Assembly (NCBI GenBank): GCA_964479945.1
Contig: CAYZNS010000001.1
Coordinates: 11,493 to 75,492, forward strand
Reading direction: 5' to 3'
Length of the DNA stretch: 64,000 nt
Origin: an uncultured Candidatus Saccharibacteria bacterium
GTDB lineage: Bacteria > Patescibacteriota > Minisyncoccia > Ryanbacterales > 2-02-FULL-48-12
A program made the position numbers and the translations under genes. The notes under the pieces were generated by a model that saw only the letters and a list, made by a program, of their open reading frames with translations, did no database searches and was not told the DNA's origin. Shown in pieces: positions 29,030 through 47,640 of the stretch. The number at the start of each line of letters is the position of its first letter. The first letter of the stretch is position 1.

Positions 29030-29103
29030 AAATAAAAACTAAAAGTTTTAAGTTTGAAGTTTCAGTTTTGCGTTTTGATTTTTGAATTTTGAATTTTGAG
29101 TTT
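29030..29103. terminator. same class (AAAGTCAAAACTTAAACTCAAAAATAAAAACT ... AGTTTTAAGTTTGAAGTTTCAGTTTTGCGTTTTGA)
   Basis: Lies between the DegT gene and the GT2 gene. Confidence 0.55.
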
Positions 29104-30302
29104 CATTTGTATTTCTTCAAAAACCTCCTAAAAACTTCTTCCATATACCCAATCTGCTTAGCGTCAAGCCCCTGATGACATCCCACCACGAATCCGCCGC
29201 GCATTACGTGTTCGGTAGCTGGATACTCTTTTACCGCTTTTTTATGCTGGATAGTTTGAAACGCCGGCTGGCGCAGAATATTTCCGGTAAAGATGGGGCG
29301 CGTCTGTATATCGTTTTTTTCAAGATAGGCGCAAATATCCCGCCGCGAAAACGGCGCTTCATCACGGATGGTAAGTGGAAACGCGAGCCAGTTTGTTACA
29401 ACACCGGGCATAGTTTCCGGCAGCAGGAAAAAATTGCGATATTTTTCAAAAAAATCCCGGAGACGCGAAAAGTTTTTCCGGCGCGTTTCAGAAAACTTTG
29501 GCAGGCGGTCCAGTTGTTTGAGCCCGAACGCCGCACTCAATTCAAGCGGCAAAAAATTATATCCCATCTCGCTGAACACAAACTTCGCGTCATACGGAAT
29601 GCCGTCAACCTCCACATCAAACCGCTTTTTTATATTTTCCGATGCGCGCGATTCTCCCAAAAGCGAAGAGGACCGCCCCCAGCCACGCAGTACTTGCGCG
29701 CGACCAGCGAGTGTTCTGTCGTGCGTCATAATCATGCCGCCGCCGCCTGCGCCGTTGATAATATGCGAGCCATAAAAACTTGTTGTTGTAATATCGGAAT
29801 ACGATCCCGTGGGTTTCCCATTTATGCGCGCACCAAGCGTATCGCAAGAATCTTCCACCAAAATTAGCTTATGCGCGTCGGCTATGTTGCGCAAACGCGG
29901 AAGATCGGGGACATTCCCCAGAAGCGAGGGCACCATGAGCGCGCGCGTTTTTTTGGTAATGGCTTTTTCTGCCTGATCAATATTCAAAAGATATGTTCCT
30001 GGCACCACGTCCACAAACATGGGGGTAAGCCGATGCTGCACCAGCGGCCCCACCACCGTGCTGAACGTAAGCGATGGCGTAATTACCTCCGACCCTTCCG
30101 GAAGATTCATGAGTTCCACGACAAGTATGTTTGCCGAGGAGCCGGAGTTTACCATCACGCCGTATTTCTTGCCAAACAGCCGCGCAATGCGCCGTTCAAA
30201 TTCGGCGGTTTTTGCGCCCACGGCCGTATTCCCGCGCAACACGTCGACTACCGCATCTATCTCCGGCTTACCATGGACTGATTGTGCATAAGGCACACGC
30301 AT
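29103..30302 (-). CDS. DegT/DnrJ/EryC1/StrS-family PLP-dependent sugar aminotransferase
   Basis: Family N-terminus KPEIDAVVDVLRGNTAVGAKTAEFERRIARLFGKKYGVMVNSGSSANIL plus a C-terminal extension. Confidence 0.85.
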   Translation of the reverse strand: MRVPYAQSVHGKPEIDAVVDVLRGNTAVGAKTAEFERRIARLFGKKYGVMVNSGSSANILVVELMNLPEGSEVITPSLTFSTVVGPLVQHRLTPMFVDVVPGTYLLNIDQAEKAITKKTRALMVPSLLGNVPDLPRLRNIADAHKLILVEDSCDTLGARINGKPTGSYSDITTTSFYGSHIINGAGGGGMIMTHDRTLAGRAQVLRGWGRSSSLLGESRASENIKKRFDVEVDGIPYDAKFVFSEMGYNFLPLELSAAFGLKQLDRLPKFSETRRKNFSRLRDFFEKYRNFFLLPETMPGVVTNWLAFPLTIRDEAPFSRRDICAYLEKNDIQTRPIFTGNILRQPAFQTIQHKKAVKEYPATEHVMRGGFVVGCHQGLDAKQIGYMEEVFRRFLKKYK

Positions 30303-30420
30303 GCAATAAAACTCTAAATTCCAAACCCTAAACTCTAAACAAGTTCCAAACTCAAAATTTTAAACCCAAAACGCTTTGAACTTTAAGCTTTGAGTTTGTT
30401 TAGAGTTTAGGGTTTATTTC
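30303..30420. terminator. same class (CCCTAAACTCTAAACAAGTTCCAAACTCAAAATTTTAAACCCAAAACGCTTTGAAC ... GCTTTGAGTTTGTTTAGAGTTTAGGG)
   Basis: Lies between the transketolase and DegT genes. Has the longest arms (about 17-nt near-perfect CCCTAAACTCTAAACAA / TTGTTTAGAGTTTAGGG). Confidence 0.55.
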
Positions 30421-30432
30421 AGTTCCTCTACT

Positions 30433-31365
30433 CTACCTTTTTTTAAACGTTTGTAAAATGCGCCCTGCAATCTGTTCCGGTAAAAGGCCGTGCTGTCGTC
30501 TGAGATATTCTTGCGATCCGGCTCGGAACGTAAATACGTCATGGACGCCGAAGCGCATAAAATTCTCAACCGTACCATTGTTCTCGGCCAGCACTTCGGC
30601 GACCGCAGAGCCCAGTCCACCGATAATGGAATGCTCTTCCAACGTTGCCGCAACGCGCGCGCCGTTCGCATAACTCACAATCCCCGCAATGTCCAACGGC
30701 TTTACAGTCGGCACGGAGACAACCGCAGCTTTGACGCCTTTGTTCCGCAATAGCGCCGCGGTATCAACCGCCGTACGCACCATATTCCCTGTGCCAAACA
30801 GCGTACACTCGCTCCCGGCGCCGCCCTCCACCGGAATTATCTTGCCAAGTGAAAACGAAACACGTCCGGTGTGCACCTCCGGCTCACCCTTTTTCCCTAT
30901 CCGCAGATACGCCGGCCCCTTCATGCGCGCAAGCGCTTTTGTTGCCGCGCGGGTCTCTGCCGGATCCCCCGGACACACAACTGTCATACCGGGAATACTC
31001 CGCATGATTGCTATATCCTCTATGGCGTGATGCGTAGGACCCAGCTGCCCAAATCCAAAACCAGCGCCAACCCCCACAATTATGACGCCTGCTTTTTGCA
31101 TGGCAACATCAACACGGATCTGTTCAAAACAACGCATGGTTGCGAAAGGGGCCAACGTATAGAAAAAAACTCGATATCCAGAAAGCGCAAGGCCGGCCGC
31201 AATGCCCACGGAACTTTGTTCCGTAACACCTGTATTCATAAACCTTTCAGAAAATTCATTCTGTAATTCTTCAAAAACAGAAAAGCCCATGTCAGCGGTA
31301 ATAAGCACAACATCATCCCTTCCCCGCATTAATTCAGTTACAGTTTCTACAAAAGCAGTTCTCAT
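30433..31365 (-). CDS. transketolase C-terminal (pyrimidine-binding / C-domain) subunit
   Basis: Split-transketolase B subunit signatures (FVETVTEL...DVVLITADMG, IDVAMQKAGVIIVGVGAGFGFGQLGPTHH). Overlaps the A subunit by 4 nt. Confidence 0.8.
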   Translation of the reverse strand: MRTAFVETVTELMRGRDDVVLITADMGFSVFEELQNEFSERFMNTGVTEQSSVGIAAGLALSGYRVFFYTLAPFATMRCFEQIRVDVAMQKAGVIIVGVGAGFGFGQLGPTHHAIEDIAIMRSIPGMTVVCPGDPAETRAATKALARMKGPAYLRIGKKGEPEVHTGRVSFSLGKIIPVEGGAGSECTLFGTGNMVRTAVDTAALLRNKGVKAAVVSVPTVKPLDIAGIVSYANGARVAATLEEHSIIGGLGSAVAEVLAENNGTVENFMRFGVHDVFTFRAGSQEYLRRQHGLLPEQIAGRILQTFKKR

Positions 31366-32156
31366 AACTCTTTCTCCGCTATGGCGATTTCGGCTTCACC
31401 CGGAGTTTGATAATGCCACTCATTCTTACCTTCCATCACAGAAAGACCTTTCCCTTTTATAGTATGCGCTATAATAACATTCGGTTTTCCCTTTCGTAAT
31501 TTTTTAAAAGCATCGCGTATCTCATTGAAATTGTGCCCATCAATGCTTTGAACACTCCATCGAAACGCCTCCCACTTTTGTGGAAATGGCTCGAGATCAA
31601 GAATATCCTCAACACGACCAAAACTTTGAAATTTATTATAGTCTACAATTGCAATCAAGTTATCCAACTTATAATGGCCTGCCTGAAGAATTGCTTCCCA
31701 AACGGAACCCTCGTCACATTCTCCGTCGCTTAACAATACAACTACTCTGCCAGGATTTTGCTGTAATCGATTTGCAAGCGCCATTCCTACGCCTATGGGC
31801 AATCCGTGACCCATTGAACACGTGGTTGCCTCCACGCCTGGTATGGTGCGCGTGGCAGCTCCCATAAAAGGACTTCCATCCTTACAGTATGTATCGAGCA
31901 ACTCTTTTTTGAAAAATCCCTTACGCGCAAGGACGGCATAGAGCGTAGAAATTCCCCACCCCTTGCTTAAAATAAATTTATCACGATCGGCTTGAAACGA
32001 AAAATCCACACGCAAAAAATCCTCGTATAAATAAACGAGTAACTCAACTATGGAGTATGAAGATGCGATATGCATCGCCCGGGCAGACACAATCATGTCA
32101 AGAACATCTTTCCGAATTTCTCGCGCCTCTGTTTTCAGTTTTTTCACAGATACCAT
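31362..32156 (-). CDS. transketolase N-terminal (TPP-binding) subunit
   Basis: TPP-binding fold, GDGECDEGSVWEA motif (GDG-x-E-G). Confidence 0.8.
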   Translation of the reverse strand: MVSVKKLKTEAREIRKDVLDMIVSARAMHIASSYSIVELLVYLYEDFLRVDFSFQADRDKFILSKGWGISTLYAVLARKGFFKKELLDTYCKDGSPFMGAATRTIPGVEATTCSMGHGLPIGVGMALANRLQQNPGRVVVLLSDGECDEGSVWEAILQAGHYKLDNLIAIVDYNKFQSFGRVEDILDLEPFPQKWEAFRWSVQSIDGHNFNEIRDAFKKLRKGKPNVIIAHTIKGKGLSVMEGKNEWHYQTPGEAEIAIAEKEL

Positions 32157-32171
32157 AAAACGTAAAAAAAC

Positions 32172-33122
32172 TCACCTATTATAAAGATGGATATTCTTGT
32201 CGTACCAAGTGTAAGTTTTCAAAAGGCCTTCTTCAAGGGTATGTGCAGGTTGCCATTTCAATTCTTCTCGCGCTTTAGAGATGTCAGCAATCCAATTTAC
32301 TGCTGCATTATAAGTTCTTTTTTTATCTTCGGACCCCCACTGGAGAGGAACTTTTATGCCCGCCATTGCAGATGCGCGCGTTACCACATCCTCCACCGCG
32401 TAATCTATGCCGCTGCCAACATTAAAAATGGAGCCCGGCACCTGCGGTTGATTTGCAGCGCTCTGTAAAGCTGAAACTACATCCTCAACATAAATAAAGT
32501 CGCGTCGAGAATCTCGGGAGGCAAGCCGGAGCGTTTCTTTTTTAATGAACGCCTGCATTATGTCAGGAATAAGGCGTCCCGACTCCTCGTAGGGACCATA
32601 TACAAGCGTTAATCGTAGAGTGGTAATTGGAAGATTGTGCGCTAACGCATAGTGACACGCAAAAAAAGTTTGCGCGGCTTTTGCAATGCCGTACGGAGTA
32701 TTAGGCTCCAATAAATCAGTTTCTTTCATTGGATGTTTTTTGAAACCATACTCGGAAGTACTGCCTATATTTACAATACTTATTGCAGAATCTGTTTCCC
32801 GAAGCGCCTCAAAGAGCGCAACACTGCCAAGGATATTTGTATGCACAATCGTTTCTATGTCTTTTTGGTACGAATAAGCGCCAAACATAGCAAGATGAAA
32901 AACAACATCAGGCCGAATTTTCAGAATACCCTGGCGTACAGATTCCTTATCCGTTATATCTATATTATATCTCTCAACCGCCTCATCAAATCCTTGAAGG
33001 CGCCACATATCTGATGTTTTGCGCGCAAATATAAAAACGGTATGTTGGCCAGATGCAACAAGCATCCGTATAAGATTCGCTCCTACAAAGCCAGTAGCAC
33101 CAGTTAGAAGTATTTTTTTCAT
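32172..33122 (-). CDS. NAD-dependent epimerase/dehydratase (extended SDR)
   Basis: MKKILLTGATGFVGANLIRML, YGIAKAA (YxxxK). Confidence 0.8.
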   Translation of the reverse strand: MKKILLTGATGFVGANLIRMLVASGQHTVFIFARKTSDMWRLQGFDEAVERYNIDITDKESVRQGILKIRPDVVFHLAMFGAYSYQKDIETIVHTNILGSVALFEALRETDSAISIVNIGSTSEYGFKKHPMKETDLLEPNTPYGIAKAAQTFFACHYALAHNLPITTLRLTLVYGPYEESGRLIPDIMQAFIKKETLRLASRDSRRDFIYVEDVVSALQSAANQPQVPGSIFNVGSGIDYAVEDVVTRASAMAGIKVPLQWGSEDKKRTYNAAVNWIADISKAREELKWQPAHTLEEGLLKTYTWYDKNIHLYNR

Positions 33123-33124
33123 GT

Positions 33125-34072
33125 CTATAAATAAAGATTTCTATTTCTTTTAAACCATTCAACTGTCCGCGCCAGCCCATCATCCAGTGTTGTAGCGGCT
33201 TTCCAGTCCAATATTTTTTTTGCTTTGGACACGTCATAGACGTGTTTTCGCGCAGAGTCCCATCGCCGCTCCTCAACCGCGCCCCATTGCAGCGGCACGG
33301 GAGTGCTCATGCGCCGCTGTACCGTGGTAACAACATCCTTGATAGAATATTCTCTGCCGGCGCCGATATTGATGATTTCTCCCGGCGCGACATCGCATTC
33401 TGCGGCGCGTTCAAACGCATCAAGCGCGTCTTCCACGAATAAAAAATTTTTTCGCGGCTTGGGCGAAGAGAGCTTGAGAGGCGTCTGCTTGAGATGCGCA
33501 AGAATAGACGCCGGCACCAAGCGGCGCGCTTCTTCATACGGCCCGTAAAGCAGCGACGGGCGCACAATGACAATCGGCATTTTATGAAAACGCGCATAGT
33601 ACTGCGCAAACAAGCTCTGCGACGCTTTTGAGGCACCGTACGCATTTGCTGGCCGCAAAAGAGAATACTCCTGCATCCACGCTTCATCGGAATCATACTC
33701 CATAACACTCCCCACATTTACGATACGCTCAACGGAACCACTATAACGAAGCGCCTCCAATAAATATATTGTTCCCAAAATATTGGAAACAACCATCTCT
33801 GTCAATACATTCTGATCAGTAAACAAAGTATGCGGAGGTCCCGCTATATGATACACAATTTCGGGTTGTGCTTTCTTCACGGCGCGCGCAACCGCGCGGG
33901 TATCGGCAAGATTTGCCTTATGCACAGTCAGGCGGGGTAAAATATCACGGATGCGCCAGGCATCCGAACTGGCGCGCATAATTATATGCACATCCGCGCC
34001 GCGCGAAACCAGCCGATGCGCAAGATTGGCGCCGACAAACCCCGTAGCCCCAGTTATAAGAATTTTGGACAT
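33125..34072 (-). CDS. NAD-dependent epimerase/dehydratase (extended SDR)
   Basis: MSKILITGATGFVGANLAHRL, YGASKAS. The longer track ORF (to 34162) runs into the MITE; ATG at 34072 chosen. Confidence 0.8.
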   Translation of the reverse strand: MSKILITGATGFVGANLAHRLVSRGADVHIIMRASSDAWRIRDILPRLTVHKANLADTRAVARAVKKAQPEIVYHIAGPPHTLFTDQNVLTEMVVSNILGTIYLLEALRYSGSVERIVNVGSVMEYDSDEAWMQEYSLLRPANAYGASKASQSLFAQYYARFHKMPIVIVRPSLLYGPYEEARRLVPASILAHLKQTPLKLSSPKPRKNFLFVEDALDAFERAAECDVAPGEIINIGAGREYSIKDVVTTVQRRMSTPVPLQWGAVEERRWDSARKHVYDVSKAKKILDWKAATTLDDGLARTVEWFKRNRNLYL

Positions 34073-34247: not shown

Positions 34248-35228
34248 TTACTTTGCTGTTTCAAAAAATTCCTTGTACCAATCAATAGTGCGACGAAGCC
34301 CCTCCTCCAGCGTAAATTTCGGCTGCCATCCGAGCATTTCCCGCGCCTTTGCGGCGGACAGATATTGGTGCGGTATCTCGTGCGCCGCAGTTGCCAAAAT
34401 TTGCGGCTGCAAGTTACTACCCATAAGCGCGAGAATCTTATTAGCAAGCTCCAATACCGTAATTTGGTTTTCGTTGCTAAAATTAAACGCGTGGCCATGT
34501 ATGCGCTCATCGTCCATGCGCTCCGCAAGCGTAAGATACGCATGCGCGGCATCTTCAATATAAAAATAATCGCGGACCATACTGCCATCCGAGCGCAGAA
34601 CGGGCGGTATTCCATGTACTACAGACCGGATAGTGCCGGGCACAATGCGGTTGAAATTAAGATCTCCCCCGCCGTAAAAATTACCGCAACGCGTAATCGC
34701 TACCGGCAATTTATAGGTATTAAAATACGTATGCGCAATAAGATCCGCGGCACTCTTGGAAACATCGTACGGGTGGCTACCTTGCAGAGGCGCGGCTTCA
34801 CTGTACGGTAGCTCTTTATGCACGCCGTATGCTTTATCGGAAGACGCCACCACCACACGCTTTACCAGCGGGCTCCGGCGCGCGGCTTCCAGAACATTCC
34901 AGGTCCCTTTGATGTTTGATTCAAACGTGGAGAGGGGGTTCCTGTTTGCAATCTCAACAATTGTCTGCGCGCCGAGATGAAACATTGTGTCAATTTCATA
35001 TTCCCCCAATGCGCGTTCAAGTACCGGATAATCCTCCAAAGCGCCCCGCACAATAGTAACTTTGTGAATATAACCGGAACGAAACAGTTGCGCGTTTGGC
35101 ACAATATCACGAACAAGCACGGTAACATTTGCTTCCGCGTTCACAAGCGACTTTGTAAGCCACGAGCCCAACAAGCCGCTTGCCCCTGTAACAAAAACGT
35201 TTTTATGCTTCCAATACGCCGGAATCAT
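34248..35228 (-). CDS. rfbG: CDP-glucose 4,6-dehydratase
   Basis: [23 protein letters not shown] matches the RfbG N-terminus; extended SDR fold. Confidence 0.8.
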
Positions 35229-35308: not shown

Positions 35309-36079
35309 GTGTGTTATCTTTATAGCATGAATTATATGGAGCAAAAGAAACAAGGAAAAGCGGTGGGAGTCATCTTGACTTACAATTGTGCGCACCTGGT
35401 TGAAGGTCTTATACGAAGAATACCCCGAGACGCGCTTGATGAAATCATCATAGTTGACGACAGCACCCGGGATCAAAATGAAACCGGCGCCATTGCCGCC
35501 AAGTATGACATACCATTTTTCCCCCAGCACTGCGTAGGGTACGGTGGAAATTTGAAATACGGGTTACGCAAAGCGATAGAGAGGGGGGCGGCTTTCGCCA
35601 TTGAAATTCACGGAGACGGGCAATTTGACCCGTCCGGCATTCCTTTAACTGTTGAGAAACTCCGCGGCGGAGCTGATTTTGTTATGGGATCGCGGTTCAC
35701 AAACTGGAAACAGCCATTGCGAGACGGAATGCCGCTTATCCGGTTTATAGCTAATATAATGTTAAGCACGATAGCGCGCACGGTCTTGCGCATACCGTGG
35801 TCAGAGTACCACAGCGGGTTCCGCGCCTACAGCGGGCGGCTTATCAACGCGGTTGGCAATAAAGGAGCGGACAACCACATTTTCAGCTTTCAGATAATTG
35901 CCCTGGCGCGTTTTCATAACATGAAATTCGATGAAATTCCAATACGCGCCAATTACAGAGACGAACACACGTCGGTTGGCCTGCCGGAGGCGGCCGTTTA
36001 CTTTTTTCAGGTTTTCATAGTACTATCCCAATACGTACTGGCACGTCTGGGAGCCAAAAGCGACCTGTTTAAAGAATAA
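35309..36079 (+). CDS. GT2 glycosyltransferase
   Basis: VGVILTYNCAHLV...EIIIVDDSTRD (GT-A fold DxD region). Confidence 0.75.
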   Translation: MCYLYSMNYMEQKKQGKAVGVILTYNCAHLVEGLIRRIPRDALDEIIIVDDSTRDQNETGAIAAKYDIPFFPQHCVGYGGNLKYGLRKAIERGAAFAIEIHGDGQFDPSGIPLTVEKLRGGADFVMGSRFTNWKQPLRDGMPLIRFIANIMLSTIARTVLRIPWSEYHSGFRAYSGRLINAVGNKGADNHIFSFQIIALARFHNMKFDEIPIRANYRDEHTSVGLPEAAVYFFQVFIVLSQYVLARLGAKSDLFKE

Positions 36080-36085
36080 CACCTC

Positions 36086-37378
36086 ATGATAACTTACAAA
36101 ACATGCAGAGTCTGCAGCAATCCCCATCTTGATTTCTCCGGACATTTGGGCAATCTTCCTCAAATCAATTATTGCTCAAAAAGCGAAAACGAGGCGAAAC
36201 AGCTCAAAAAACTACCCATAAACCTGTATTTCTGCGAGCATTGCTATCATTTTCAATTAGGCGAATCATTTGAACCGGAAGAAACGTTCCGGACGTATTC
36301 CTACGCCACGCAATATACGCCGTCCATCAAAAAGCACGGCGAACGTGTTGTCGGTTGGTTCCACCAGAAATATTCCATGGGAGGGAAAGATTTCGTGGTG
36401 GAACTTGCTTCAAGCGACGGAGCAATATTACATTCATTTATAATAAATGGTTTTCAAAACGTGCTTGGCATTGAGCCTGCAAGAAACATAGCGCGCATCG
36501 CGCAAAAAAACGGCATAAAAACAGAAACGGGGTTCTTCTCGCGCGAATATGCGCGTAAAACAATACGCAAACATGGCTACGCCGACTTTGTGCTTGCGCG
36601 TAATGTCTTGGCACACGTACCAGAAACGGTTGATTTCTTGCAGGGGGTGCGCGATCTTCTCAAGCCAGACGGCATTTTTTGCGTAGAGACGCCTTATGGA
36701 CGAAACCTTATAGATTATACGGAATTTGACAGCGTCTATCACGAGCACCTTTCCTACTATCTTGTATCTACCCTCAAATACCTTATGGGAAGAGCAGGTC
36801 TTGAGATCGTAGATATTGAAGAAACAAACATCCATACCGGAAGCATTGCTGTTTTTGCAAAACGAACAGAATCATCACGCCCCGTCTCCCCGCGCATAAA
36901 CAACTTTCTGGAAGAAGAAAGTAAAAACGGATATTTCAAAAAGGACACCTACCGCACGTTTGTCGCAACGGCAAAAAAGCATATAAAAAGCATCCAATTA
37001 TATGTTTCCGCGCTTGCAAAACAAGGTAAACCGCTTATCGGCTATGGTGCAGCCGCAAAAGCAAACGTCATAATAAATCTTGCCGGCATTAATTCTTCCC
37101 TTATGAACGTTATCGTAGACCGCAACCCCATTAAACACAATACATGGGCACCGGGTTCCGGCATACCAATAAAACCATCACAAGAAATACATGAAATAAA
37201 TCCGGAACACATTATTCTTTTTGCGTGGAATTTCGCTGATGAAATACTGCAAGAAAACGGGCACTTACTCCGAGTGGGAAAGAAATTTCACGTCCTTATT
37301 CCAAAACCCATGCGTATCACGCCGGAAATTATACAAAAGAAAGGAAGTTTCAAATTCTATCGGTCTCTTGAGACATAA
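36086..37378 (+). CDS. NDP-hexose C-methyltransferase (Zn-ribbon, class I SAM methyltransferase, C-methyltransferase C-domain)
   Basis: CRVCSN...CEHCYHFQ zinc-ribbon and VVELASSDG SAM motif. Architecture matches TylC3/NovU-type sugar 3-C-methyltransferases. Confidence 0.8.
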   Translation: MITYKTCRVCSNPHLDFSGHLGNLPQINYCSKSENEAKQLKKLPINLYFCEHCYHFQLGESFEPEETFRTYSYATQYTPSIKKHGERVVGWFHQKYSMGGKDFVVELASSDGAILHSFIINGFQNVLGIEPARNIARIAQKNGIKTETGFFSREYARKTIRKHGYADFVLARNVLAHVPETVDFLQGVRDLLKPDGIFCVETPYGRNLIDYTEFDSVYHEHLSYYLVSTLKYLMGRAGLEIVDIEETNIHTGSIAVFAKRTESSRPVSPRINNFLEEESKNGYFKKDTYRTFVATAKKHIKSIQLYVSALAKQGKPLIGYGAAAKANVIINLAGINSSLMNVIVDRNPIKHNTWAPGSGIPIKPSQEIHEINPEHIILFAWNFADEILQENGHLLRVGKKFHVLIPKPMRITPEIIQKKGSFKFYRSLET

Positions 37379-39631: not shown

Positions 39632-39740
39632 AGCTGAAATGCTTAGATTTCGTAGCGAAAATTGCAAACAAGTGAGGCGGCGTAGCATGCTACGCCAACG
39701 AGCTTTTTGCAATTTGCAGTAGAAATATAAGCATTTCAGC
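39632..39740. repeat. three-level nested palindrome: outer 19-nt arms, middle AAATTGCAAA arms, central perfect 18-nt palindrome GGCGTAGCATGCTACGCC
   Basis: Read directly: GCTGAAATGCTTAGATTTC ... GGCGTAGCATGCTACGCC ... GAAATATAAGCATTTCAGC. Confidence 0.6.
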
Positions 39741-39904
39741 CCTCAAGTGCTATTATGTGGTTATTATAAACGGTTATTTTTAAGATAGGCTCTAGTTTCC
39801 GAAAGTCCACACGATCGCATGTTGTTTCGGAAAGATTGATAAAGGTGAACTCCGAATTTTTTCGGAAAACAAAAAGCGGACCGCTGTAGATCCGCCATGA
39901 CACA

Positions 39905-40570
39905 TCACGCAATACTATCGTCATCTGGCAGTTTTACACCAACGGCCTTTAGACGAAACTTTAAAAGTTCAATATGCTCTTTGGCACCATTAAACACGAC
40001 TCCTTTCATTCCAAGCTGCATAGCCGCTTCTACATACGAAGCAACATCATCAATAACAACGCATTCTGATGGCTTAAGCCCATATCGCTGTTCGAGATCC
40101 ACGGCAACTACGCCATAAAGTTTTGGCTTCAGGCAGCGTGCATTACCAGAAGCATATACATGATCAAACCGTAAGCCATATTCCATAAACAACATCCGCG
40201 GGACATATTCGCTTCCGTAATCACCGTTAGACACAGCAAACATTTTGTACGTTTTTTTAAGCGAACACGCCAATTTCACTGTCGATTCTATAGGACGCAG
40301 ATGACAGACAAACATAGAAACAAAATCGTGAAATTGCATATCCCGCCGACTGATGCCGCCCACTTTGCACACACGCCGCCAAAGATCCTGAAAACTCATC
40401 TCGCCCGTATCCAACCTTTGGTAAACCGCTTCTCCCCACTGACTACCAAAGATAAGCGAAGCAGTTTTACTATTGCCACCGTAGTAGTCCACTATTTTCT
40501 GGATAACATCCTTTCGCTCCCAAAATGTAACGTATACACGACCGAAGTCATTCAGAATTGCTTTTATCAC
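39905..40570 (-). CDS. HAD-superfamily hydrolase-like protein (degenerate motif I)
   Basis: C-terminal VVIDDVASYVEAAMQLGMKGVVFNG (HAD motif III/IV-like). N-terminal LNDFGRV replaces the canonical DxDGTL. GTG start behind an AAGGAG RBS. Confidence 0.5.
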   Translation of the reverse strand: MIKAILNDFGRVYVTFWERKDVIQKIVDYYGGNSKTASLIFGSQWGEAVYQRLDTGEMSFQDLWRRVCKVGGISRRDMQFHDFVSMFVCHLRPIESTVKLACSLKKTYKMFAVSNGDYGSEYVPRMLFMEYGLRFDHVYASGNARCLKPKLYGVVAVDLEQRYGLKPSECVVIDDVASYVEAAMQLGMKGVVFNGAKEHIELLKFRLKAVGVKLPDDDSIA

Positions 40571-40815: not shown

Positions 40816-41529
40816 TTACATGATTTGCTGACCCTGATCATCATATAAACAAGTAGGGTTCTGCGCAAGCGCTTCATCAAATGATGCAAACTCGCAGAAC
40901 CAATTTTTTCCTCGTAGCTCGTCATATATCTGGGCGAGCCACCTCCATTCAGATGCACGGTGCAAACCATCAAACCGGATAAGGCCTTTCCGCATTCCTT
41001 CCCGTCGAAGTAAGAATGCTCGCAGACAGTCCACATATTTCCTGTGATGGCCGAGCGTATCATCCGGAATCGCGGTGAGTGGGTAAAAAGTCCCGTTTGT
41101 CGGCTCACCTTCCACCTCACAGTACCAAAAGTGATTCATCTGCTGGCCCGGTACCCATCCGGTTTCCGGCCGGGTGCTGAAACGGCGGATAAACTCGAAA
41201 TTCACCAACTTAAGGCCTGTCTCGGAGGCAATTGTCCGTTTAACCCACGCTTCATCATCTTCGCCGCGCAGAATGTATTTCCCCGGCATGTGATGGCCTG
41301 TGTAGTCATCATCCCGAAACCACATGAGTACATGCGGCTCGTGGTTGATGGTGCGGACAATCGCGCATTCGGAGGGCACTGCCGGGAAAATCGCGAACAT
41401 AATTGCCTCAAAAATATCTTTCCCGGTTCTCTGCCATCCAACCTTTTTCAAAAGGCCCAATAACTGCTGCTGTTCTTCCGGCAATAATTGCGTTACCGCC
41501 GGCTGTTCATCCCACATCGGATGCTTCAT
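40816..41529 (-). CDS. Nudix-like protein (degenerate Nudix box), paralog of the adjacent gene
   Basis: GKYILRGEDDEAWVKRTIASETGL region aligns to the Nudix box of the neighbouring protein. Confidence 0.5.
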   Translation of the reverse strand: MKHPMWDEQPAVTQLLPEEQQQLLGLLKKVGWQRTGKDIFEAIMFAIFPAVPSECAIVRTINHEPHVLMWFRDDDYTGHHMPGKYILRGEDDEAWVKRTIASETGLKLVNFEFIRRFSTRPETGWVPGQQMNHFWYCEVEGEPTNGTFYPLTAIPDDTLGHHRKYVDCLRAFLLRREGMRKGLIRFDGLHRASEWRWLAQIYDELRGKNWFCEFASFDEALAQNPTCLYDDQGQQIM

Positions 41530-41552: not shown

Positions 41553-42230
41553 TCAAGCGGTTTGTTGCGGCGTAACCAGATGCCACATGTGGCGAATTGC
41601 CTCATTAATATACGGCGCGTAGTCCTGTTGGATCGGAAGCATATTCGGCGGACACTCTTCAAACCAGGCGCAGTCGCCACCCACAGGTTTCTCCGGGTCG
41701 ACAGCAGGCTGCGCGATAAGCCCACCAACCACCTGGCAGCGGTATAAGATCGGGGCATCCCGAAAGCGCGGGCTACCGATCTGGTCAAAAACCTTAAGCA
41801 CTTCAAAAGGCCGAACCTCTAGCCCGGTCTCATCTCGTGCGCAACGCACCACAGCCTCTATAAATGTCTCGCTTTCCTTAGGATATGTCCCGGGCGTATG
41901 CCATCCTTCGCCAAATACCGGATGCAACCGCCATTCAAGGAGGACTTGCCCTTCATGGATGATAACCGCCTCCACCGCGACAACCGGCCCCGCCTTTCTC
42001 TTGATCGGCTCAAACGCGGCACCATGCCGCTCCGGTAACCAATTCTCAAGTTGGTATGCAAGCAGCTCCTTGCCCCGGTCATTAAACTTCCCTTCATCGA
42101 AGCATTCCAGTCCCTCAAGATATGCTTGGAAGAATTGTACATCCTCCTGTGTCATTTCCGCCATTTCTGGCCTCCTTCTTGGAAAAGATAGATTCTCATA
42201 CTGTATAGCAATATTCTGGAACATTGTCAA
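41553..42230 (-). CDS. Nudix hydrolase family protein
   Basis: PGTYPKESETFIEAVVRCARDETGLEV resembles the Gx5Ex7REUxEExGU Nudix box. Confidence 0.6.
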   Translation of the reverse strand: MTMFQNIAIQYENLSFPRRRPEMAEMTQEDVQFFQAYLEGLECFDEGKFNDRGKELLAYQLENWLPERHGAAFEPIKRKAGPVVAVEAVIIHEGQVLLEWRLHPVFGEGWHTPGTYPKESETFIEAVVRCARDETGLEVRPFEVLKVFDQIGSPRFRDAPILYRCQVVGGLIAQPAVDPEKPVGGDCAWFEECPPNMLPIQQDYAPYINEAIRHMWHLVTPQQTA

Positions 42231-42258
42231 TAATCATCCAATATGCTATTATACTCGC

Positions 42259-43146
42259 ATGGAGAATACGAAAAAACGCGTGCTCATAACTGGTGCCGGC
42301 GGGATGCTCGGAAGCGCTTTTACGACGCATTGTATGGAAAAAAAATACAACACGCGCGCGCTGGACCATGCCGCGCTAGACGTGGAAAACCGCGCGGCAG
42401 TACGCACACAACAGAAATGGAGCCCGGATTGGATTATTCACTGCGCGGGTATTGTGAATGCCGATTTTTGCGAAGAGAATCGCGATGCGTGTTTCAAAAA
42501 CCATGTGGAAGGAACGCAACATATCGTGGAGCTTGCGAAAACAACCGGCGCCAAACTGCTCTATCCGCAATCGTTTCTCATTTTTGACGGCAAAGAAAAT
42601 CCTATCACTGAAGAAACCGTCCCTGACCCCCTTTCGGTGTATGGCGAGGCGAAATGGGAAGCGGAACAACGGGTGCGCAAAGAATTGCCCGACGCGCTCG
42701 TCGTCCGCATGGGCGGGTTTTTCGGCGGCGAAGAAAAAGACAAAAACTTTGTCGGCAAGTTCGCGCGTCATCTGAAAAAATGTCTTGACGAAAGTATCAA
42801 AGAAATATCCATAGGAAAAAGAGTTTGGCAGCCAACCTACACCAAAGACCTGGCGGAAAACTGTGTATTGCTTTTGGAACACGAAAAAATCGGCGTATAC
42901 AATATGGCAAGCCATGGTGAGGCATCGTTTTATGACGTGGCATCTGCAATGGTGGAAATCCTTGGAATTGACGACAAAATCACCATCACGCCGTCAACAG
43001 ACGAATATAAAGAAAACGCAAAACGCCCCGACCGCGCCGTGATGGAAAACAGAAGATTGCAAGAAGAAGGGTTGGATAGAATGAGGGGGTGGAAAGATGC
43101 GTTGGGAGAATATCTTTCGCAAAAATATTTTAAAGAATTATTCTAA
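42259..43146 (+). CDS. RmlD-like NAD(P)H-dependent 4-keto-sugar reductase (dTDP-4-dehydrorhamnose reductase family)
   Basis: RVLITGAGGMLGSAF...DWIIHCAGIVNADFCEENRDACFKNHVEGTQHIVELAK is RmlD substrate-binding-domain-like. ATG at 42259 chosen to avoid overlapping the convergent Nudix gene. Stop TAA lies inside the MITE terminal repeat. Confidence 0.75.
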   Translation: MENTKKRVLITGAGGMLGSAFTTHCMEKKYNTRALDHAALDVENRAAVRTQQKWSPDWIIHCAGIVNADFCEENRDACFKNHVEGTQHIVELAKTTGAKLLYPQSFLIFDGKENPITEETVPDPLSVYGEAKWEAEQRVRKELPDALVVRMGGFFGGEEKDKNFVGKFARHLKKCLDESIKEISIGKRVWQPTYTKDLAENCVLLLEHEKIGVYNMASHGEASFYDVASAMVEILGIDDKITITPSTDEYKENAKRPDRAVMENRRLQEEGLDRMRGWKDALGEYLSQKYFKELF

Positions 43147-43599: not shown

Positions 43600-43601
43600 A
43601 T

Positions 43602-44648
43602 ATGCTGCTTCTCTCTCCATTCAACAAAAACGGCTTATCGCTCAAAAACCGCGTGGTAATGTCCGCCATGACGCGGAATTTTGCCGACAAAGACCACAAC
43701 CCTACCGATCTTATGCGCGCATATTACGAACGCCGGGCTGCAAACGATGTCGGGCTTATTTTGACGGAAGGCACTATCATCCACCCCAGCGGCGACGGCT
43801 ACCCCGATGTGCCATATATCTATACCAGCGCGCAAGTAGAAGTATGGAAGCGTATTACCGACGCCGTTCATCAGCACGATACAAAAATTTTCTGCCAGCT
43901 TTGGCACTGCGGGCGCATCTCGCATCCGGACTATCTGGGCGGCGCGCTGCCGGTTTCCTCCTCTGCCGTACTCCCGGAAGGCAATGCCCCGCATATGCAA
44001 GTGCCTATGATCACACCGCGCGCGTTAGAACACGATGAAATCCCCGAAATCGTAGAGATGTTCGCAGAAGCGACAAGAAAGGCCCTTGCAGCCGGGTTTG
44101 ACGGCGTGGAAATACACGGCGGGCATGGCTATATTGTTGACCAATTTTTCGACAGCCGCATCAACCGGCGCACGGACGAATATGGCGGCAGCGTGGAAAA
44201 CCGCTGCCGGTTCGGGCTGGAGGTTGCAAAAGCCGTGCTGGAAGTCGCCGGTCCCGAACGTACGGCGCTGCGCATCTCGCCCTCGCGCGACATGAAAGGC
44301 CTCTACGAATGGCTCAACTTGGAAGAGATGCTTACTTATCTTATCCCGCAACTTGATAAAGCGGGCTTGCACATCCTGGATATTAGCTGCGCCCGCAGCG
44401 ACACCGTAAACATATACGAATCAACATCGGGAAAGATAGTGCGCATGGTACGCGCAATGTGGCCGCATATTATCATGGCGGGTGCAAGTTTGCCGGCCGA
44501 ACGCGCAGATGAAGAAATAGAAAACGGCATGGTTGATCTTATAACCTACGGGCGGTTTATTTTAGCAAACCCCGATTTCGTAAAAAAAATAGCAGCGGGC
44601 GAGCCGCTGGTTCCGTATGATCCTGAGATGAGAAAAACGTTGTATTAA
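43602..44648 (+). CDS. Old Yellow Enzyme-family NADH:flavin oxidoreductase (alkene reductase)
   Basis: LKNRVVMSAMTRN, HGGHGYIVDQFF, and the C-terminal OYE barrel. Confidence 0.85.
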   Translation: MLLLSPFNKNGLSLKNRVVMSAMTRNFADKDHNPTDLMRAYYERRAANDVGLILTEGTIIHPSGDGYPDVPYIYTSAQVEVWKRITDAVHQHDTKIFCQLWHCGRISHPDYLGGALPVSSSAVLPEGNAPHMQVPMITPRALEHDEIPEIVEMFAEATRKALAAGFDGVEIHGGHGYIVDQFFDSRINRRTDEYGGSVENRCRFGLEVAKAVLEVAGPERTALRISPSRDMKGLYEWLNLEEMLTYLIPQLDKAGLHILDISCARSDTVNIYESTSGKIVRMVRAMWPHIIMAGASLPAERADEEIENGMVDLITYGRFILANPDFVKKIAAGEPLVPYDPEMRKTLY

Positions 44649-44865: not shown

Positions 44866-46221
44866 ATGCAACTGTATACCACCCGCGCACTGTTTTGTCT
44901 TATACTCATAATTTTTATCACGGGCATGGGTGGATTTTTTATAGGACTGAAATTTTTTAGCGCCCATGTTTCCGACATATCGCATATTGTAACCCGCCTT
45001 GATATTCTTCACGCAAATAATAACGCGCTGTGGCGTAATTTTTCGCCAACGTGGCGTTCTTTAAAACGTGTTGTAGACCTGCCATATGTATTGTATTACG
45101 CATTTTATACAACAAAATTACCTGTCTATGAACTTTCGTTATCTCGATCAGATACAAAAAATCTCCTTGCAAATTTACCTGTGTATCCTGGAAATACACT
45201 GCTCTACGACGAACACAAAGAAGCAGTTAAAGGTTCTTTTCGTACTAGCGCTTACTTCACCGATGAGGCAAAAATTCGTTATCGTGGGCTGACATCAAGC
45301 CATTGGAATGCAAAAAAGAAATCGTGGCATATTATACTTCCCTCATCACAACCGCTTCAGGGAACACACAAACTCCGGTTTGTTTTGCCGGAAGACAGAC
45401 GCTGGGCTACATATTTAGTCAACCAGCATAGAGCGCAAAAACTCAACCTCATAATGCTTACCGCGCATTTTGGGCGACTCACTGTAAATGAAGAAAATGC
45501 GGGCATATATCTTGTGCAAGAGGGATGGACGCCCGCGTTGCTTACAAAAACCGGACGCACGCCTGACGGCATTATATTTTCTGAACGCGACGGAGCACTG
45601 CAGAAAAATCTTTTTATGCCTGAACATATAGACATGTGGGAAAACAAACTGACCGGAGAACCAGCCGCTTCACACAAAGCTCTCCGCGCCCTGCTTGATC
45701 TAATAGCAAACTCGCCGGATGATGAATTTGCCAATACACTGCCGCGTATTCTTAACATGGAAGCAACGTATAACTGGATGCTTCTTATCGCGCTCTCCGG
45801 AAGCGCGCATCAGAATAACTATGAAAACGCAGCTTTCTATTTTGATCCCTCATCAAATATGTTTGAACCGATTCCCTTTGATCTTTCGTTAAACCCTCTC
45901 GGCAGTACATGGAACCATGGAAAAAATAACCTGATACGCAGAATCATGAGCATTCCATCATTTCAAAAAGAATTCAGCGCGCGTATTGCGGCATACGTAC
46001 GCAACCCCCAGACACTGCAAGATGACCTTGCCGTATATGACATGACGGTCGACCAAATAAAACCCGACGTGTTAAGCGACATCAAAAAAATTCAGTCTTC
46101 CGCAGAAGTTCTACAATCGTTTATCGACCAACGGACAATTATAGAAACCAACGCGCATATCCTCGCTGATATGATCCGACAAAATGGAGCTATATACTAC
46201 GACCCCATCCCAAAACTCTGA
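44866..46221 (+). CDS. CotH-family (atypical kinase-like) protein with N-terminal membrane anchor
   Basis: CotH signature AKIRYRGLTSSHWNAKKKSWHIILP. Shares NFSPTWRSLKR and other blocks with the paralogs at 50490 and 52903. Confidence 0.7.
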   Translation: MQLYTTRALFCLILIIFITGMGGFFIGLKFFSAHVSDISHIVTRLDILHANNNALWRNFSPTWRSLKRVVDLPYVLYYAFYTTKLPVYELSLSRSDTKNLLANLPVYPGNTLLYDEHKEAVKGSFRTSAYFTDEAKIRYRGLTSSHWNAKKKSWHIILPSSQPLQGTHKLRFVLPEDRRWATYLVNQHRAQKLNLIMLTAHFGRLTVNEENAGIYLVQEGWTPALLTKTGRTPDGIIFSERDGALQKNLFMPEHIDMWENKLTGEPAASHKALRALLDLIANSPDDEFANTLPRILNMEATYNWMLLIALSGSAHQNNYENAAFYFDPSSNMFEPIPFDLSLNPLGSTWNHGKNNLIRRIMSIPSFQKEFSARIAAYVRNPQTLQDDLAVYDMTVDQIKPDVLSDIKKIQSSAEVLQSFIDQRTIIETNAHILADMIRQNGAIYYDPIPKL

Positions 46222-46296
46222 TTTACCGCTATAATAAAGACATTATCAGGTGAGTAATCATCAATTGCTCACAAAAATAACGATAGTGTCTTTATG

Positions 46297-46717
46297 ATAG
46301 AAGTACATCGACATCCATATAATTCGGATATAACAGGTGCGCAGTGGGAGCGCATTGAACCGTTATTGCCAAAACAGGTCGAAAAAGAAGTAATCCACGC
46401 GAGGTACTAAACGGTATTCTCTATGTGCTTTCAACCGGTTGCCGATGGAAAGACCTGCCACACGATATTAGTGCGTCTCCTTCTACCTGTAATAGGTGGC
46501 TCCTTACCGAAAGAATCATAGAACTATCTATCTTGGAAGACCGCCAAAGGATACGCACGAAAAACGGTATAACCAGCAACGGTGGAAAGTGGAACGAACA
46601 TTTAGCCGGGCGAACAATAATCGGAGAATTGATCGTATGTTGGAACGAACACAGAAATCATATCGGGCATTTATACGAGTATATATCATGAAACATTATT
46701 TAAACCTTTTATATTAA
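46297..46717 (+). mobile_element. IS5/IS1182-family transposase remnant (frameshifted, internally deleted)
   Basis: N-terminal ...ITGAQWERIEPLLP... then a frameshift to ...LNGILYVLSTGCRWKDLPHD... (DUF4096-type). Far C-terminal ...QQRWKVERTFSRANNNRRI..RYE tail. The DDE core is missing. Confidence 0.65.
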
Positions 46718-46857
46718 TGTATTTTGAGTTTTGGGATGACTTCATTGAAAACAAAGAATGAAACCAAATTTTTGCGAGCTAAAAATATTATCATTGATTT
46801 ATAGGCTTTTTATTGAAAAGTTGCACTTGTAAATTGAATTCAGCTTGAATTAATTTT

Positions 46858-47640
46858 CTATTTCTCCCACACCATCCAGGGCCGCTCCCCTTTATTGTAA
46901 TACGCATTCAATCCTTCCACGTGCTTAAACGTGTCCATGCAATGCCAAAACTTGTTGTGTTGGTAAATCGCAAGCTGTCCTTGAGACGCGATCTGCCGGA
47001 GCGGCCCTTGCTCAAAAATCATGGTACCTTCCGGCGAGAGAAACTCAAACACTTTTTTATTGCACACAAAAAATCCGCCGTTTGCCCAATCCTGCGATTG
47101 CGGCTTTTCGGTAAAGGTTGTTACTACGCCATTTGCCGCTTCAATGACCCCAAATGGATTGGGCGGCTGGACACCCGTTACCGTAACCATTTTATTTTTC
47201 TCGCGATGAAAACGGTATAAATCCAAGATATCCACGTCGGTAACGGCATCCCCGTATGTCAGCATAAACTCTTCGTCGTCCCCAATGTATTTTTGAATGC
47301 GCGCGATACGGCTGCCCGTTTCGCACGCCTGCCCCGTATCCGCGAATGTTATCTTCCAATTGGGCGTGCCATTATCGTGATGAAAAACTTCTTTCTTTCC
47401 CGAACCAAGCTTCAACGTAAAGTCATGAGCCAGCTCATCGTAGTTCAGGAAATAATTTTTTATCATATCGCCCTTGTATCCCAGGCACAAAATAAAATCG
47501 TTGTATCCGTAATGAGAATATAACTTCATAATGTGCCACAAAATAGGCCGATCGCCCACCATAACCAGCGGCTTCGGCCGATATTCCGTCTCTTCCCGCA
47601 AGCGGGTCCCCTGTCCCCCGCATAAAATAACTACTTTCAT
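46858..47640 (-). CDS. rfbF: glucose-1-phosphate cytidylyltransferase
   Basis: MKVVILCGGQGTRLREETEYRPKPLVMVGDRPILWHIMK matches the canonical RfbF N-terminus. Confidence 0.9.
   Translation of the reverse strand: MKVVILCGGQGTRLREETEYRPKPLVMVGDRPILWHIMKLYSHYGYNDFILCLGYKGDMIKNYFLNYDELAHDFTLKLGSGKKEVFHHDNGTPNWKITFADTGQACETGSRIARIQKYIGDDEEFMLTYGDAVTDVDILDLYRFHREKNKMVTVTGVQPPNPFGVIEAANGVVTTFTEKPQSQDWANGGFFVCNKKVFEFLSPEGTMIFEQGPLRQIASQGQLAIYQHNKFWHCMDTFKHVEGLNAYYNKGERPWMVWEK

Follow-up and report, generated by a model that had tools for sequence, protein, structure and literature searches.

A divergent split transketolase in a predicted CDP-3,6-dideoxyhexose branching cassette of an uncultured patescibacterium

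We analysed a stretch of 64,000 nucleotides (hereafter, the window; positions 11,493 to 75,492 of contig CAYZNS010000001.1, forward strand) from the assembly GCA_964479945.1 of an uncultured Candidatus Saccharibacteria bacterium, assigned by GTDB to the Ryanbacterales within the candidate phyla radiation (CPR), and focused on a gene cassette that combines a split transketolase with enzymes of CDP-sugar synthesis. The open reading frames (ORFs) of the window were listed and scanned with Pfam and NCBIfam profiles. According to these scans, the cassette is surrounded by an envelope-glycan locus of ~45 kb (roughly 15.4-62 kb of the window), which also encodes UDP-sugar short-chain dehydrogenases/reductases (SDRs), a dehydrogenase, a Bac_transf initiating transferase, a Wzx-like flippase, several family 2 glycosyltransferases (GT2s), a formyltransferase, a PIG-L deacetylase, CotH and VTC genes and two Wzy_C proteins of ~760 amino acids (aa). 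The core of the cassette is a minus-strand operon running from 35264 to 28031 (SDR1, SDR2, SDR3, the transketolase subunits TK-N and TK-C, a DegT-family protein and the glycosyltransferase GT2a), accompanied by a divergent plus-strand pair of genes for a small GT2 (GT2b) and a TylC3-type C-methyltransferase. The cofactors mentioned are thiamine diphosphate (ThDP) and pyridoxamine 5'-phosphate (PMP).

28031-29002, minus: GT2a, putative polyprenyl-phosphate glycosyltransferase of the PgfS/ArnC/GtrB type, at the end of the cassette (NCBIfam PgfS, ArnC)
29103-30302, minus: E1/ColD-like PMP-dependent CDP-4-keto-6-deoxyglucose 3-dehydratase of the DegT family, predicted (E1 3BCX, ColD, RfbH)
30433-31365, minus: TK-C, subunit with the pyrimidine-binding and C-terminal domains (Transket_pyr 133 bits, Transketolase_C 77 bits)
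31362-32156, minus: TK-N, ThDP/diphosphate-binding (PP-domain) subunit, W-type (Pfam Transketolase_N 110 bits)
32172-33122, minus: SDR3, partner of the transketolase pair, proposed YerF-like reductase of the branch carbonyl (Pfam Epimerase 154 bits)
33125-34072, minus: SDR2, extended SDR of the reductase/epimerase type (Pfam Epimerase 146 bits)
34248-35228 (or to 35264), minus: SDR1, similar to rfbG, CDP-glucose 4,6-dehydratase-like (TIGR02622 best match)
35309-36079, plus: GT2b, small soluble GT2, PpgS/AglJ/Dpm1-like (Pfam Glycos_transf_2 40.6 bits)
36086-37378, plus: NDP-hexose C-methyltransferase of the TylC3/TcaB9/MtmC type (Methyltransf_13, 23 and 14)
37350-38714, minus: multi-pass membrane protein of 454 aa, candidate GT-C glycosyltransferase (hydrophobic segments, weak LA_3751/2 match)
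41553-42230, minus: NUDIX hydrolase (Pfam NUDIX 33 bits)
42277-43146, plus: predicted RmlD-like NDP-4-ketohexose reductase (Pfam RmlD_sub_bind 184 bits)
46858-47640, minus: rfbF, glucose-1-phosphate cytidylyltransferase (TIGR02623)
47807-49168, minus: candidate PMT_2 (ArnT/PMT-like) GT-C membrane glycosyltransferase (Pfam PMT_2 28 bits)

A preliminary description of this DNA had proposed a single pathway to a C-branched, possibly aminated CDP-deoxyhexose. All the gene types that it named were recovered where, or close to where, it had placed them, except that its three SDR epimerases besides rfbG were one too many: the extended SDRs number three with the rfbG-like one counted, and the RmlD-like gene comes in addition. 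The clustering of these genes is not due to chance, since the same gene set recurs in synteny across many other genomes (loci of which are designated below by L numbers). Identical cassette proteins are encoded on contigs of three other assemblies (JGI 3300017437, ENA ERZ27245644 and Logan SRR5747841).

RfbF passed the equivalog cutoff of TIGR02623 (302.1 against 300.25 bits, with residues 1-258 aligned to the 255-position profile) and shares a cluster of at least 90% identity with Candidatus Ryanbacteria and 'Parcubacteria group bacterium Gr01-1014_29' proteins, so that a Ryanbacteria-like member of the CPR is the most likely source. Its gene, the sole NTP_transferase (sugar-1-phosphate nucleotidyltransferase) among the scanned window ORFs, is found directly upstream of rfbG and the transketolase pair in 16 or more other loci. 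SDR1 had TIGR02622 as its best NCBIfam family (201.9 bits), matched the CDP-glucose 4,6-dehydratases 1WVG (136 bits) and 1RKX (130 bits) of the PDB and carries the motifs SSDKAYG (Asp-Lys) and PYDVSK (YxxxK), of which we take the Asp-Lys acid/base pair to be the mark of CDP-specific 4,6-dehydratases. It is 84% identical to its homolog in L012, the closest syntenic relative, and in related cassettes the rfbG-like gene always comes after rfbF (directly downstream in L007, L009, L011, L017, L089, L092 and others). The rfbG assignment of the preliminary description agrees with the motifs, the best family and the pairing with rfbF, but the protein misses the TIGR02622 cutoff of 278.45 bits; the CDP-glucose-derived deoxysugar pathway proposed there is upheld. 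SDR2, called as 315 aa on independent contigs, has the motif GSVMEYD and the Y/K residues and no dehydratase Asp-Glu/Lys pair. SDR3 matched the GDP-4-keto-6-deoxyhexose reductase 2PK3 (101 bits); SDR3-like genes directly adjoin TK-N in many loci, and in Paenibacillus cellulosilyticus an SDR is fused to TK-N in a single protein of 635 aa. NUDIX homologs lie between rfbF and rfbG in L011, L017 and L089 and near both genes in L012, and a role in regulating the CDP-sugar pool is possible for the NUDIX protein.

The DegT homolog had been described as an aminotransferase, hence the possible amination of the sugar, and neither suggestion was borne out by closer comparison. RfbH is its top NCBIfam model (339 bits), and E1 (3BCX, 244 bits) and ColD (175 bits) are its nearest solved relatives, to both of which it aligned over the full length. 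In an alignment including wild-type 3BCX and its H220K mutant 3BB8, His180 of the window protein coincides with H220 of E1 and H188 of ColD, in a motif SFYGSH(180)I where aminotransferases have the Lys of SFxxxK; Lys-type homologs in the same alignment keep this Lys. A change from Lys to His is the key difference of nucleotide-sugar 3-dehydratases from aminotransferases (PMC8987622). Because His replaces the catalytic Lys and the closest relatives are E1 and ColD, the protein appears to be a PMP-dependent 3-dehydratase, and we discarded an aminotransferase role. All the DegT homologs of at least 30% identity that adjoin transketolase pairs in other loci are likewise His-type. Since the 3-OH would be removed rather than an amine added, the predicted product is a 3,6-dideoxy sugar and not an amino sugar.

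E1 and SpnQ are marked by a four-cysteine [2Fe-2S] motif that is absent from ColD, whose turnover ends by hydrolysis, with PMP regenerated from glutamate and no reductase involved (PMC8987622). The window protein combines traits of both. It is nearer to E1 in sequence and in its CDP context; it shares with ColD the His for Lys and the absence of the Fe-S cluster. In fact, only one of the four E1 cysteines was aligned (Cys153), all three loop cysteines being missing (loop WGRSSSLLGESRASENIKK, WGRSSSLLGES, against WGRDCYCAPGCDNTCKK / WGRDCYCAPGCDNTC in E1), and no E3-like ORF was seen among those scanned in the window. Given the missing loop and E3-like ORF, an E3-dependent E1 mechanism was rejected for this copy, which is predicted to be an E1-lineage enzyme with ColD-like turnover. 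Among the His-type homologs adjoining transketolase pairs, nine carry the cysteine loop and four lack it, as the window protein does; two weaker ones (30% identity) also lack it.

The genes of TK-N and TK-C overlap by 4 bp, and, among solved structures, their products are most similar to the two chains of the split transketolase of Carboxydothermus hydrogenoformans (TK-N against PDB 6YAK, 216 bits; TK-C against 6YAJ, 185 bits). We used these alignments to map residues onto Escherichia coli TktA (Ec), the numbering and the residue roles being those that we assume for the yeast and E. coli enzymes. TK-N keeps D144 and N174 (Mg-ThDP motif), H29 (Ec H26) and H248 (Ec H261), and TK-C keeps E49 (Ec E411, the cofactor-activating Glu), R2 (Ec R358) and H112 (Ec H473). 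Replaced are Ec H66 (by Trp67) and Ec H100 (by Ala100) in TK-N, and Ec H461 (by Gly100), Ec D469 (by Leu108) and Ec R520 (by Lys158) in TK-C. We take Ec His66 and His100 to be donor/cofactor residues and Ec His461, Asp469, Arg520 and Ser385 to be acceptor or sugar-phosphate residues, with His461 and Asp469 presumably contacting the phosphate and C2-hydroxyl groups of the usual sugar-phosphate substrates. The pair shares with the C. hydrogenoformans enzyme the two-gene architecture, the ThDP/Mg2+ motif, the cofactor Glu and the equivalents of Ec H26, H261 and H473, and lacks the acceptor/phosphate residues of transketolase (EC 2.2.1.1). Where the canonical split enzyme keeps His66, His100, His461, Asp469 and an ADLSKST loop, the window pair has Trp, Ala, Gly, Leu and ADMGFSV. 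The transketolase fold itself is not in doubt. Models of PDH E1 reached at most 58 bits, far under the transketolase models, which argues against an alpha-keto acid dehydrogenase E1-type enzyme (aKADH2) like those of aldgamycin and kibdelomycin, and none of the scanned window ORFs has the TPP_enzyme_N/M/C domains that make up the YerE architecture.

We aligned the closest database relatives and then carried out a pattern scan of one genome per GTDB species, which returned at least 600 matches, at least 595 of them encoding relatives; the best 80 loci were kept for comparison. The 76 TK-C sequences from other genomes were classed by the two acceptor residues as canonical (His..Asp) or altered, and sugar-nucleotide genes within 10 kb were counted by tblastn with window-derived protein queries. 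None of 10 canonical loci (with the phosphate loop ADLSKSTKT) had sugar-nucleotide neighbours, unlike the window, whereas 46 of 64 altered loci did, 16 of them including rfbF at 39% identity or more. In a neighbour-joining tree of concatenated TK-N and TK-C (Kimura distances), canonical and altered pairs separated in 30/30 bootstraps. The recurrent arrangement is rfbF-rfbG-(E1-like or C-methyltransferase)-SDR-TKN-TKC-GT2, with the transketolase pair directly downstream of rfbF, rfbG and SDR, and is often accompanied by the E1-like gene and a homolog of GT2a. Among the loci kept, it was found in Omnitrophota, Anaerolineales, Terracidiphilus, Acidobacteriota, Actinobacteria, Planctomycetales, Bacteroidetes, Bradyrhizobium, Sphingobium agri, Paenibacillus chibensis, Methylomarinum, a gammaproteobacterium, Sungbacteria, Ryanbacteria and an Altiarchaeota genome. 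On the plasmid NZ_CP054609.1 of P. cellulosilyticus KACC 14175 (L092), the operon reads rfbF-rfbG-C-methyltransferase-[SDR::TK-N]-TK-C-TylF-type O-methyltransferase (rfbF and rfbG as annotated in RefSeq), followed by glycosyltransferases; the SDR::TK-N fusion (44990-46897 of the record) is annotated merely as 'SDR family oxidoreductase'. Such a fusion places the two activities, SDR and ThDP enzyme, at successive steps. Judged by residue pattern, phylogeny and synteny, the window pair is not a housekeeping enzyme; it is, as the preliminary description had supposed, a paralog belonging to a glycan cluster and not to central metabolism, and it did not group with canonical split transketolases, a grouping that would have spoken against that supposition.

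Within the altered clade, TK-N of the window falls in a subclade with the motifs SKGW, GAAT and TGSMGHG (W-type), whose members, the bulk of them from Patescibacteria and Woesearchaeota, are 59-85% identical to it. The majority of the genome loci, among them those most syntenic with the window (L012 and L017), are instead H-type, with His66 and His100 kept. W-type relatives occur in rfbF-rfbG-SDR cassettes (L084, L089, L090 and L091; that of L089 is the closest with usable context, its TK-N being 75% identical) and in other glycan or phosphonate loci (L086-L088). In a Woesearchaeota genome (L088, GCA_018303205.1), the W-type pair adjoins a phosphonate module (PEP mutase fused to a CTP-transferase, phosphonopyruvate decarboxylase and Fe-ADH), a CDP-alcohol phosphatidyltransferase and a flippase, so members of the clade also occur outside CDP-hexose cassettes. 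In two loci, a W pair and an H pair stand in tandem within one CDP-sugar cassette (L089 7445-10932; L090 8224-11748), which hints at two successive or alternative carboligations.

TK-C of the window has a composite sequence. By sliding-window identity, its first ~85 aa are W-like (57-76% identity to W against 34-52% to H sequences) and the rest is H-like (70-90% to L012 against 37-54% to W sequences). At the DNA level, 31115-32140 of the window is collinear with the first pair of L089 and 30879-31131 with the second TK-C of L089 and with L012, which places the junction at ~31115-31131. The simplest reading of these sequences is that TK-C is an in-frame recombinant of paralogous TK-C genes, produced either by deletion between tandem pairs or by a W module entering a backbone like that of L012. 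The identities to L012 are consistent with such recombination, as they are high in the flanks (rfbG-like 84%, E1-like 83%) and only 40-51% in the SDR2-SDR3-TK-N block. The chimera is not an assembly artefact, since the same protein is present in several independent assemblies.

GT2a matched PgfS (202 bits; cutoff 500) and ArnC (120 bits; cutoff 529) over its full length, has a hydrophobic C-terminal hairpin segment (aa 247-308) and is conserved after the dehydratase/transketolase genes in L012 (71%), L017 (59%), L089 (53%) and others. Two membrane proteins with ~10 hydrophobic segments each might act with it: the PMT_2 protein, which adjoins rfbF in the window and has a counterpart directly after the GT2a homolog in L089, and the multi-pass protein at 37350-38714, with a weak match to the LA_3751/2 putative glycosyltransferase family and a 67% identical homolog in L012. 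From the family and hairpin of GT2a and the PMT_2 neighbourhood, the sugar is probably delivered to an extracytoplasmic acceptor as a polyprenyl-phosphate monosaccharide made by the predicted PgfS/ArnC-like GT2a.

The closest known system is the yersiniose A pathway of Yersinia pseudotuberculosis (DdhA/RfbF, DdhB/RfbG, DdhC/E1, DdhD/E3, YerE and YerF), in which YerE adds activated acetaldehyde derived from pyruvate to CDP-3,6-dideoxy-4-keto-D-glucose and a reductase then completes the branch (PMC12247030). We regard as rather probable that the window encodes a yersiniose-type route to a C-branched 3,6-dideoxyhexose, with the divergent split transketolase-fold ThDP enzyme in the place of the YerE-type enzyme. 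RfbF, by its family membership, would make CDP-glucose, and SDR1 would convert it to CDP-4-keto-6-deoxyglucose, a well-supported step. The Fe-S-less E1/ColD-like enzyme, with the residue pattern described above, would then remove the 3-OH to give CDP-4-keto-3,6-dideoxyglucose, presumably with PMP regenerated from glutamate as in ColD and no E3 reductase. TK-N/TK-C would add a ThDP-bound acyl-anion equivalent to the C4 ketone, yielding a 4-C-acyl tertiary alcohol, the candidate donors being pyruvate-like molecules, hydroxypyruvate or a ketose. The H-type enzymes keep all the residues that hold dihydroxyethyl-ThDP and would fit a hydroxypyruvate or ketose donor; in the W-type, the His that contacts the C1-hydroxyl of the donor is gone, which would fit a pyruvate-like one. 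By analogy with YerF, SDR3, with or without SDR2, would reduce the branch carbonyl or epimerise the product. Finally, GT2a would load the sugar onto polyprenyl phosphate and a GT-C enzyme (PMT_2 or the 454-aa protein) would transfer it to a surface acceptor outside the membrane.

Alternatively, the transketolase-like enzyme might serve the CDP-sugar pathway through a ThDP chemistry other than acyl addition at C4, such as chain extension, branching at C3 following keto-isomerisation, cleavage of a C-C bond in the 4-keto sugar or its rearrangement, or formation of a non-sugar acyloin substituent to be attached to the glycan at a later stage. The data fix neither the regiochemistry nor the reaction direction, DXS models also give TK-C good scores (150 bits in NCBIfam; ~89 bits against DXS in the PDB), many cassettes have no 3-dehydratase, and the tandem double pairs hint at a chemistry more complex than one C2 transfer. 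However, the series rfbF, rfbG, E1-like enzyme, ThDP enzyme and SDR parallels the yersiniose pathway one-to-one, where the C4 ketone is the one attacked (PMC12247030); C4 is also the sole electrophilic carbon made by the neighbouring enzymes, and the SDR fusion fits the reduction of a newly formed ketone. We consider a different chemistry of this kind unlikely.

The single pathway of the preliminary description, in which one sugar receives a C-methyl group, a two-carbon branch and an amino group, has to be weighed against what is known of the C-methyltransferase. This protein aligned end-to-end with 4RV9, a mycarose 3-C-methyltransferase (247 bits), as well as TcaB9 (3NDI, 189 bits) and, in what we assume to be the TcaB9 numbering, retains the four Zn cysteines (CxxC...CxxC), the Tyr, NxxxH (NvlaH) and Y-x-E-H (YhEH). 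Its TylC3/NovU-type assignment was thus corroborated by three Pfam domains and by intact catalytic and Zn residues; a loss of the catalytic residues would have spoken against the proposed pathway. The families of the methyltransferase, the transketolase and DegT all lie within 8 kb, and TylC3-type homologs are part of the rfbF-rfbG-CMT-SDR-TKN-TKC operon in L005, L021, L055 and L092, so methyl and transketolase-derived groups on one sugar are plausible. Nevertheless, those four cassettes have no E1-like gene, which suggests that C3-methylation and C3-deoxygenation may be alternative preparations of the transketolase substrate; in the window, the methyltransferase is on the opposite strand to the core operon with a GT2 of its own and is missing from L012; and the amination step would have no enzyme, the DegT homolog being a His-type dehydratase (PMC8987622). 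We consider this combined pathway improbable.

The methyltransferase, GT2b and the RmlD-like reductase may either methylate the same sugar or divert the shared CDP-4-keto-6-deoxyglucose to a second, C-methyl sugar resembling cereose or cillose; the absence of the methyltransferase from L012 and its divergent operon with a second GT2 suggest such a separate sugar. GT2b matched PpgS (44.8 bits) and AglJ (39 bits) of NCBIfam and has no predicted transmembrane segment. The RmlD-like ORF extends over 41959-43146 (plus strand) with the domain beginning at aa 107, so the true start is at ~42277; the protein scored 173 bits with TIGR01214, under the cutoff of 224, and has a 69% identical homolog at the same position in L012. 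Since rfbF is the only sugar-1-phosphate nucleotidyltransferase gene among the scanned window ORFs, the methyltransferase and the RmlD-like reductase probably act on CDP-sugars too. The OYE gene adjoins the RmlD-like gene in the window and in L012 alike.

That the pair is a housekeeping pentose-phosphate split transketolase, common in CPR bacteria, which merely sits in a glycan locus, is very improbable: its best database matches are annotated as 'transketolase' in Patescibacteria and Woesearchaeota and the 64-kb window has no other transketolase, but Ec H461, D469, H66 and H100 are all replaced, the bootstraps set the altered clade apart, members of that clade occupy rfbF/rfbG cassettes in large genomes (Bradyrhizobium, Paenibacillus), relatives form tandem double pairs inside a cassette, the pair overlaps or abuts SDR genes in the operon, and the NCBIfam scores, even when summed, stay under the transketolase cutoffs.

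Several points weigh against the yersiniose-type route. rfbF lies ~12 kb away from the core operon. The matches of the rfbG-like protein, the RfbH-like protein (cutoff 423 bits), the transketolase (NF004559, 242 + 180 bits against a cutoff of 488) and GT2a all fall below the curated NCBIfam cutoffs. TK-N of the window is without two normally conserved histidines, one of which presumably contacts the ThDP diphosphate in canonical enzymes, and, with TK-C being chimeric as well, this transketolase copy could be impaired. Window-derived queries found no sugar genes around 18 of the 64 altered loci, some of whose contigs are incomplete. We know of no documented use of CDP-sugars by GtrB/ArnC-type enzymes. 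Donor, site of attack and product are predictions drawn from the sequences, and so is the chemistry of the clade as a whole.

The literature searched gave no account of a transketolase within loci for CDP-3,6-dideoxyhexoses or surface glycans, Krug et al. 2024, reportedly a bioinformatic survey of branching enzymes, being covered as far as a 2025 review summarises it. The sole mentions were in a list that included in passing two transketolase subunits in a recombination region of Campylobacter fetus, and in that review, which distinguishes three classes of sugar-branching ThDP enzymes: YerE-like of the decarboxylase family, E1-dehydrogenase-type and split-gene transketolases (PMC12247030). The formation of a tertiary alcohol on keto sugars is biochemically established for the first two. 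The review gives more than 200 predicted YerE-like enzymes and ~120 E1-dehydrogenase-type clusters; the split-gene transketolases are proposals, made for miharamycin and amipurimycin, and their 13 putative members are all Streptomycete proteins yet to be characterised (PMC12247030). The window cassette shares with the yersiniose system the CDP-glucose start, the 4,6-dehydratase, a His-type PMP 3-dehydratase, a ThDP enzyme and an SDR-type reductase within one glycan locus (PMC12247030, PMC8987622), as well as the predicted acceptor, CDP-3,6-dideoxy-4-keto-D-glucose. It differs in that its ThDP enzyme has a transketolase fold and two subunits, whereas YerE is a decarboxylase-family flavoprotein (TPP_enzyme_N/M/C), so that the likeness is functional alone; in that its dehydratase has no [2Fe-2S] cysteines and the scanned ORFs no E3 gene; and in an apparent delivery as polyprenyl-phosphate monosaccharide (GT2 and GT-C) rather than by O-unit assembly.

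The split transketolases of miharamycin and amipurimycin have in common with the window pair the two subunits and the proposed transfer of C2 units to a keto sugar (PMC12247030). However, they belong to actinomycete secondary-metabolite clusters for nucleoside-antibiotic sugars, whereas the cassette described here is found in surface-glycan loci with CDP-hexose genes, across many bacterial phyla and some archaea; we compare them by description, not by sequence. On the evidence of the TK-C signature, both may form one clade, because a homolog on a Streptomyces plasmid (L093) has the same altered signature (GFAYGQLGPTHH), without His461 or Asp469. This plasmid hit (H6) is unannotated and showed no recognisable sugar neighbours with the queries used. 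The cereose/cillose operon of Bacillus cereus is also related in content; as reportedly described by Li et al. 2017 (J Biol Chem), it comprises CDP-glucose formation, a 4,6-dehydratase, a C3-methyltransferase and a 4-reductase. Likened by description, the rfbF, rfbG-like, TylC3-type and SDR or RmlD-like genes of the window could make a CDP-3-C-methyl-6-deoxyhexose; unlike in that operon, a small GT2 accompanies the methyltransferase, which stands beside a transketolase/3-dehydratase module. The sugars cereose and cillose are named in PMC7725333.

The interval 29103-47640, which the preliminary description had delimited, does contain the pathway genes, but GT2a and the PMT_2 GT-C protein fall just outside it, and it holds several genes whose link with the pathway is not evident:

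38785-39378: protein of unknown function
39905-40570: HAD-like protein
40816-41529: protein of unknown function
43602-44648: OYE flavoprotein
44866-46221: CotH protein

A nested palindrome of ~187 nt lies at 39606-39795 (arms GAGCCTATCTCAAAAATAA / TTATTTTTAAGATAGGCTC) and folds at -85 kcal/mol (z = -8.8). It has a single copy in the window and an 89% identical one at a different intergenic site of L012 (6081-6304; Parcubacteria), and could be a mobile hairpin akin to a miniature inverted-repeat transposable element (MITE) or a bidirectional terminator. Scans of the 64-kb window for tRNA genes and Rfam families gave no match. The two Wzy_C (O-antigen ligase/polymerase) proteins, of ~760-770 aa, are encoded in tandem at 19919-24503 (minus strand) and are unusually long for their family. 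At 10996-14730, genes similar to Orn/Arg decarboxylase and deoxyhypusine synthase and one of the agmatine-deiminase family suggest polyamine (homospermidine-type) metabolism. A trio of CotH-NosD/beta-helix, VTC-domain and DUF4956 genes (50115-55694) is also present at 833-6076 of L086/L087, beside the W-type glycan locus of a Roizmanbacteria genome. The window has two further CotH genes (44866-46221 and 52903-54258).

The type of reaction is already known; the pathway context and the phylogenetic range are new. More generally, we propose tentatively, and with less confidence than the route itself, that the altered split transketolases constitute a large and widespread clade of ThDP carboligases, a third solution for C-branching, which would act on CDP-4-keto-(3,)6-deoxyhexoses in surface-glycan loci and in which W and H subtypes, tandem pairs and TK-C recombination may diversify the branches; the two subtypes may install different ones, since the residues holding the hydroxymethyl group of the donor differ. 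The cassette offers many candidates for transketolase-type branching (at least 595 related loci, with most of the 76 inspected being of the altered type) in a defined nucleotide-sugar context and, for some, in cultivable hosts, such as P. cellulosilyticus KACC 14175, P. chibensis NBRC 15958, Bradyrhizobium diazoefficiens SZCCT0138 and Sphingobium agri MAH-33. The labels 'transketolase' and 'DegT aminotransferase' in glycan loci are a common annotation trap that would mislead the metabolic reconstruction of reduced genomes; a CPR genome, for instance, could be credited with a pentose-phosphate step on account of this gene. C-branched sugars not known so far are predicted on the surfaces of CPR and other uncultured organisms, the envelope chemistry of which is essentially unexplored. 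If the proposal for the clade holds, its hosts would span CPR bacteria, DPANN/Altiarchaeota archaea, rhizobia and Paenibacillus, tandem W and H pairs may build larger branches, and recombination in TK-C may yield chemically unseen surface sugars.

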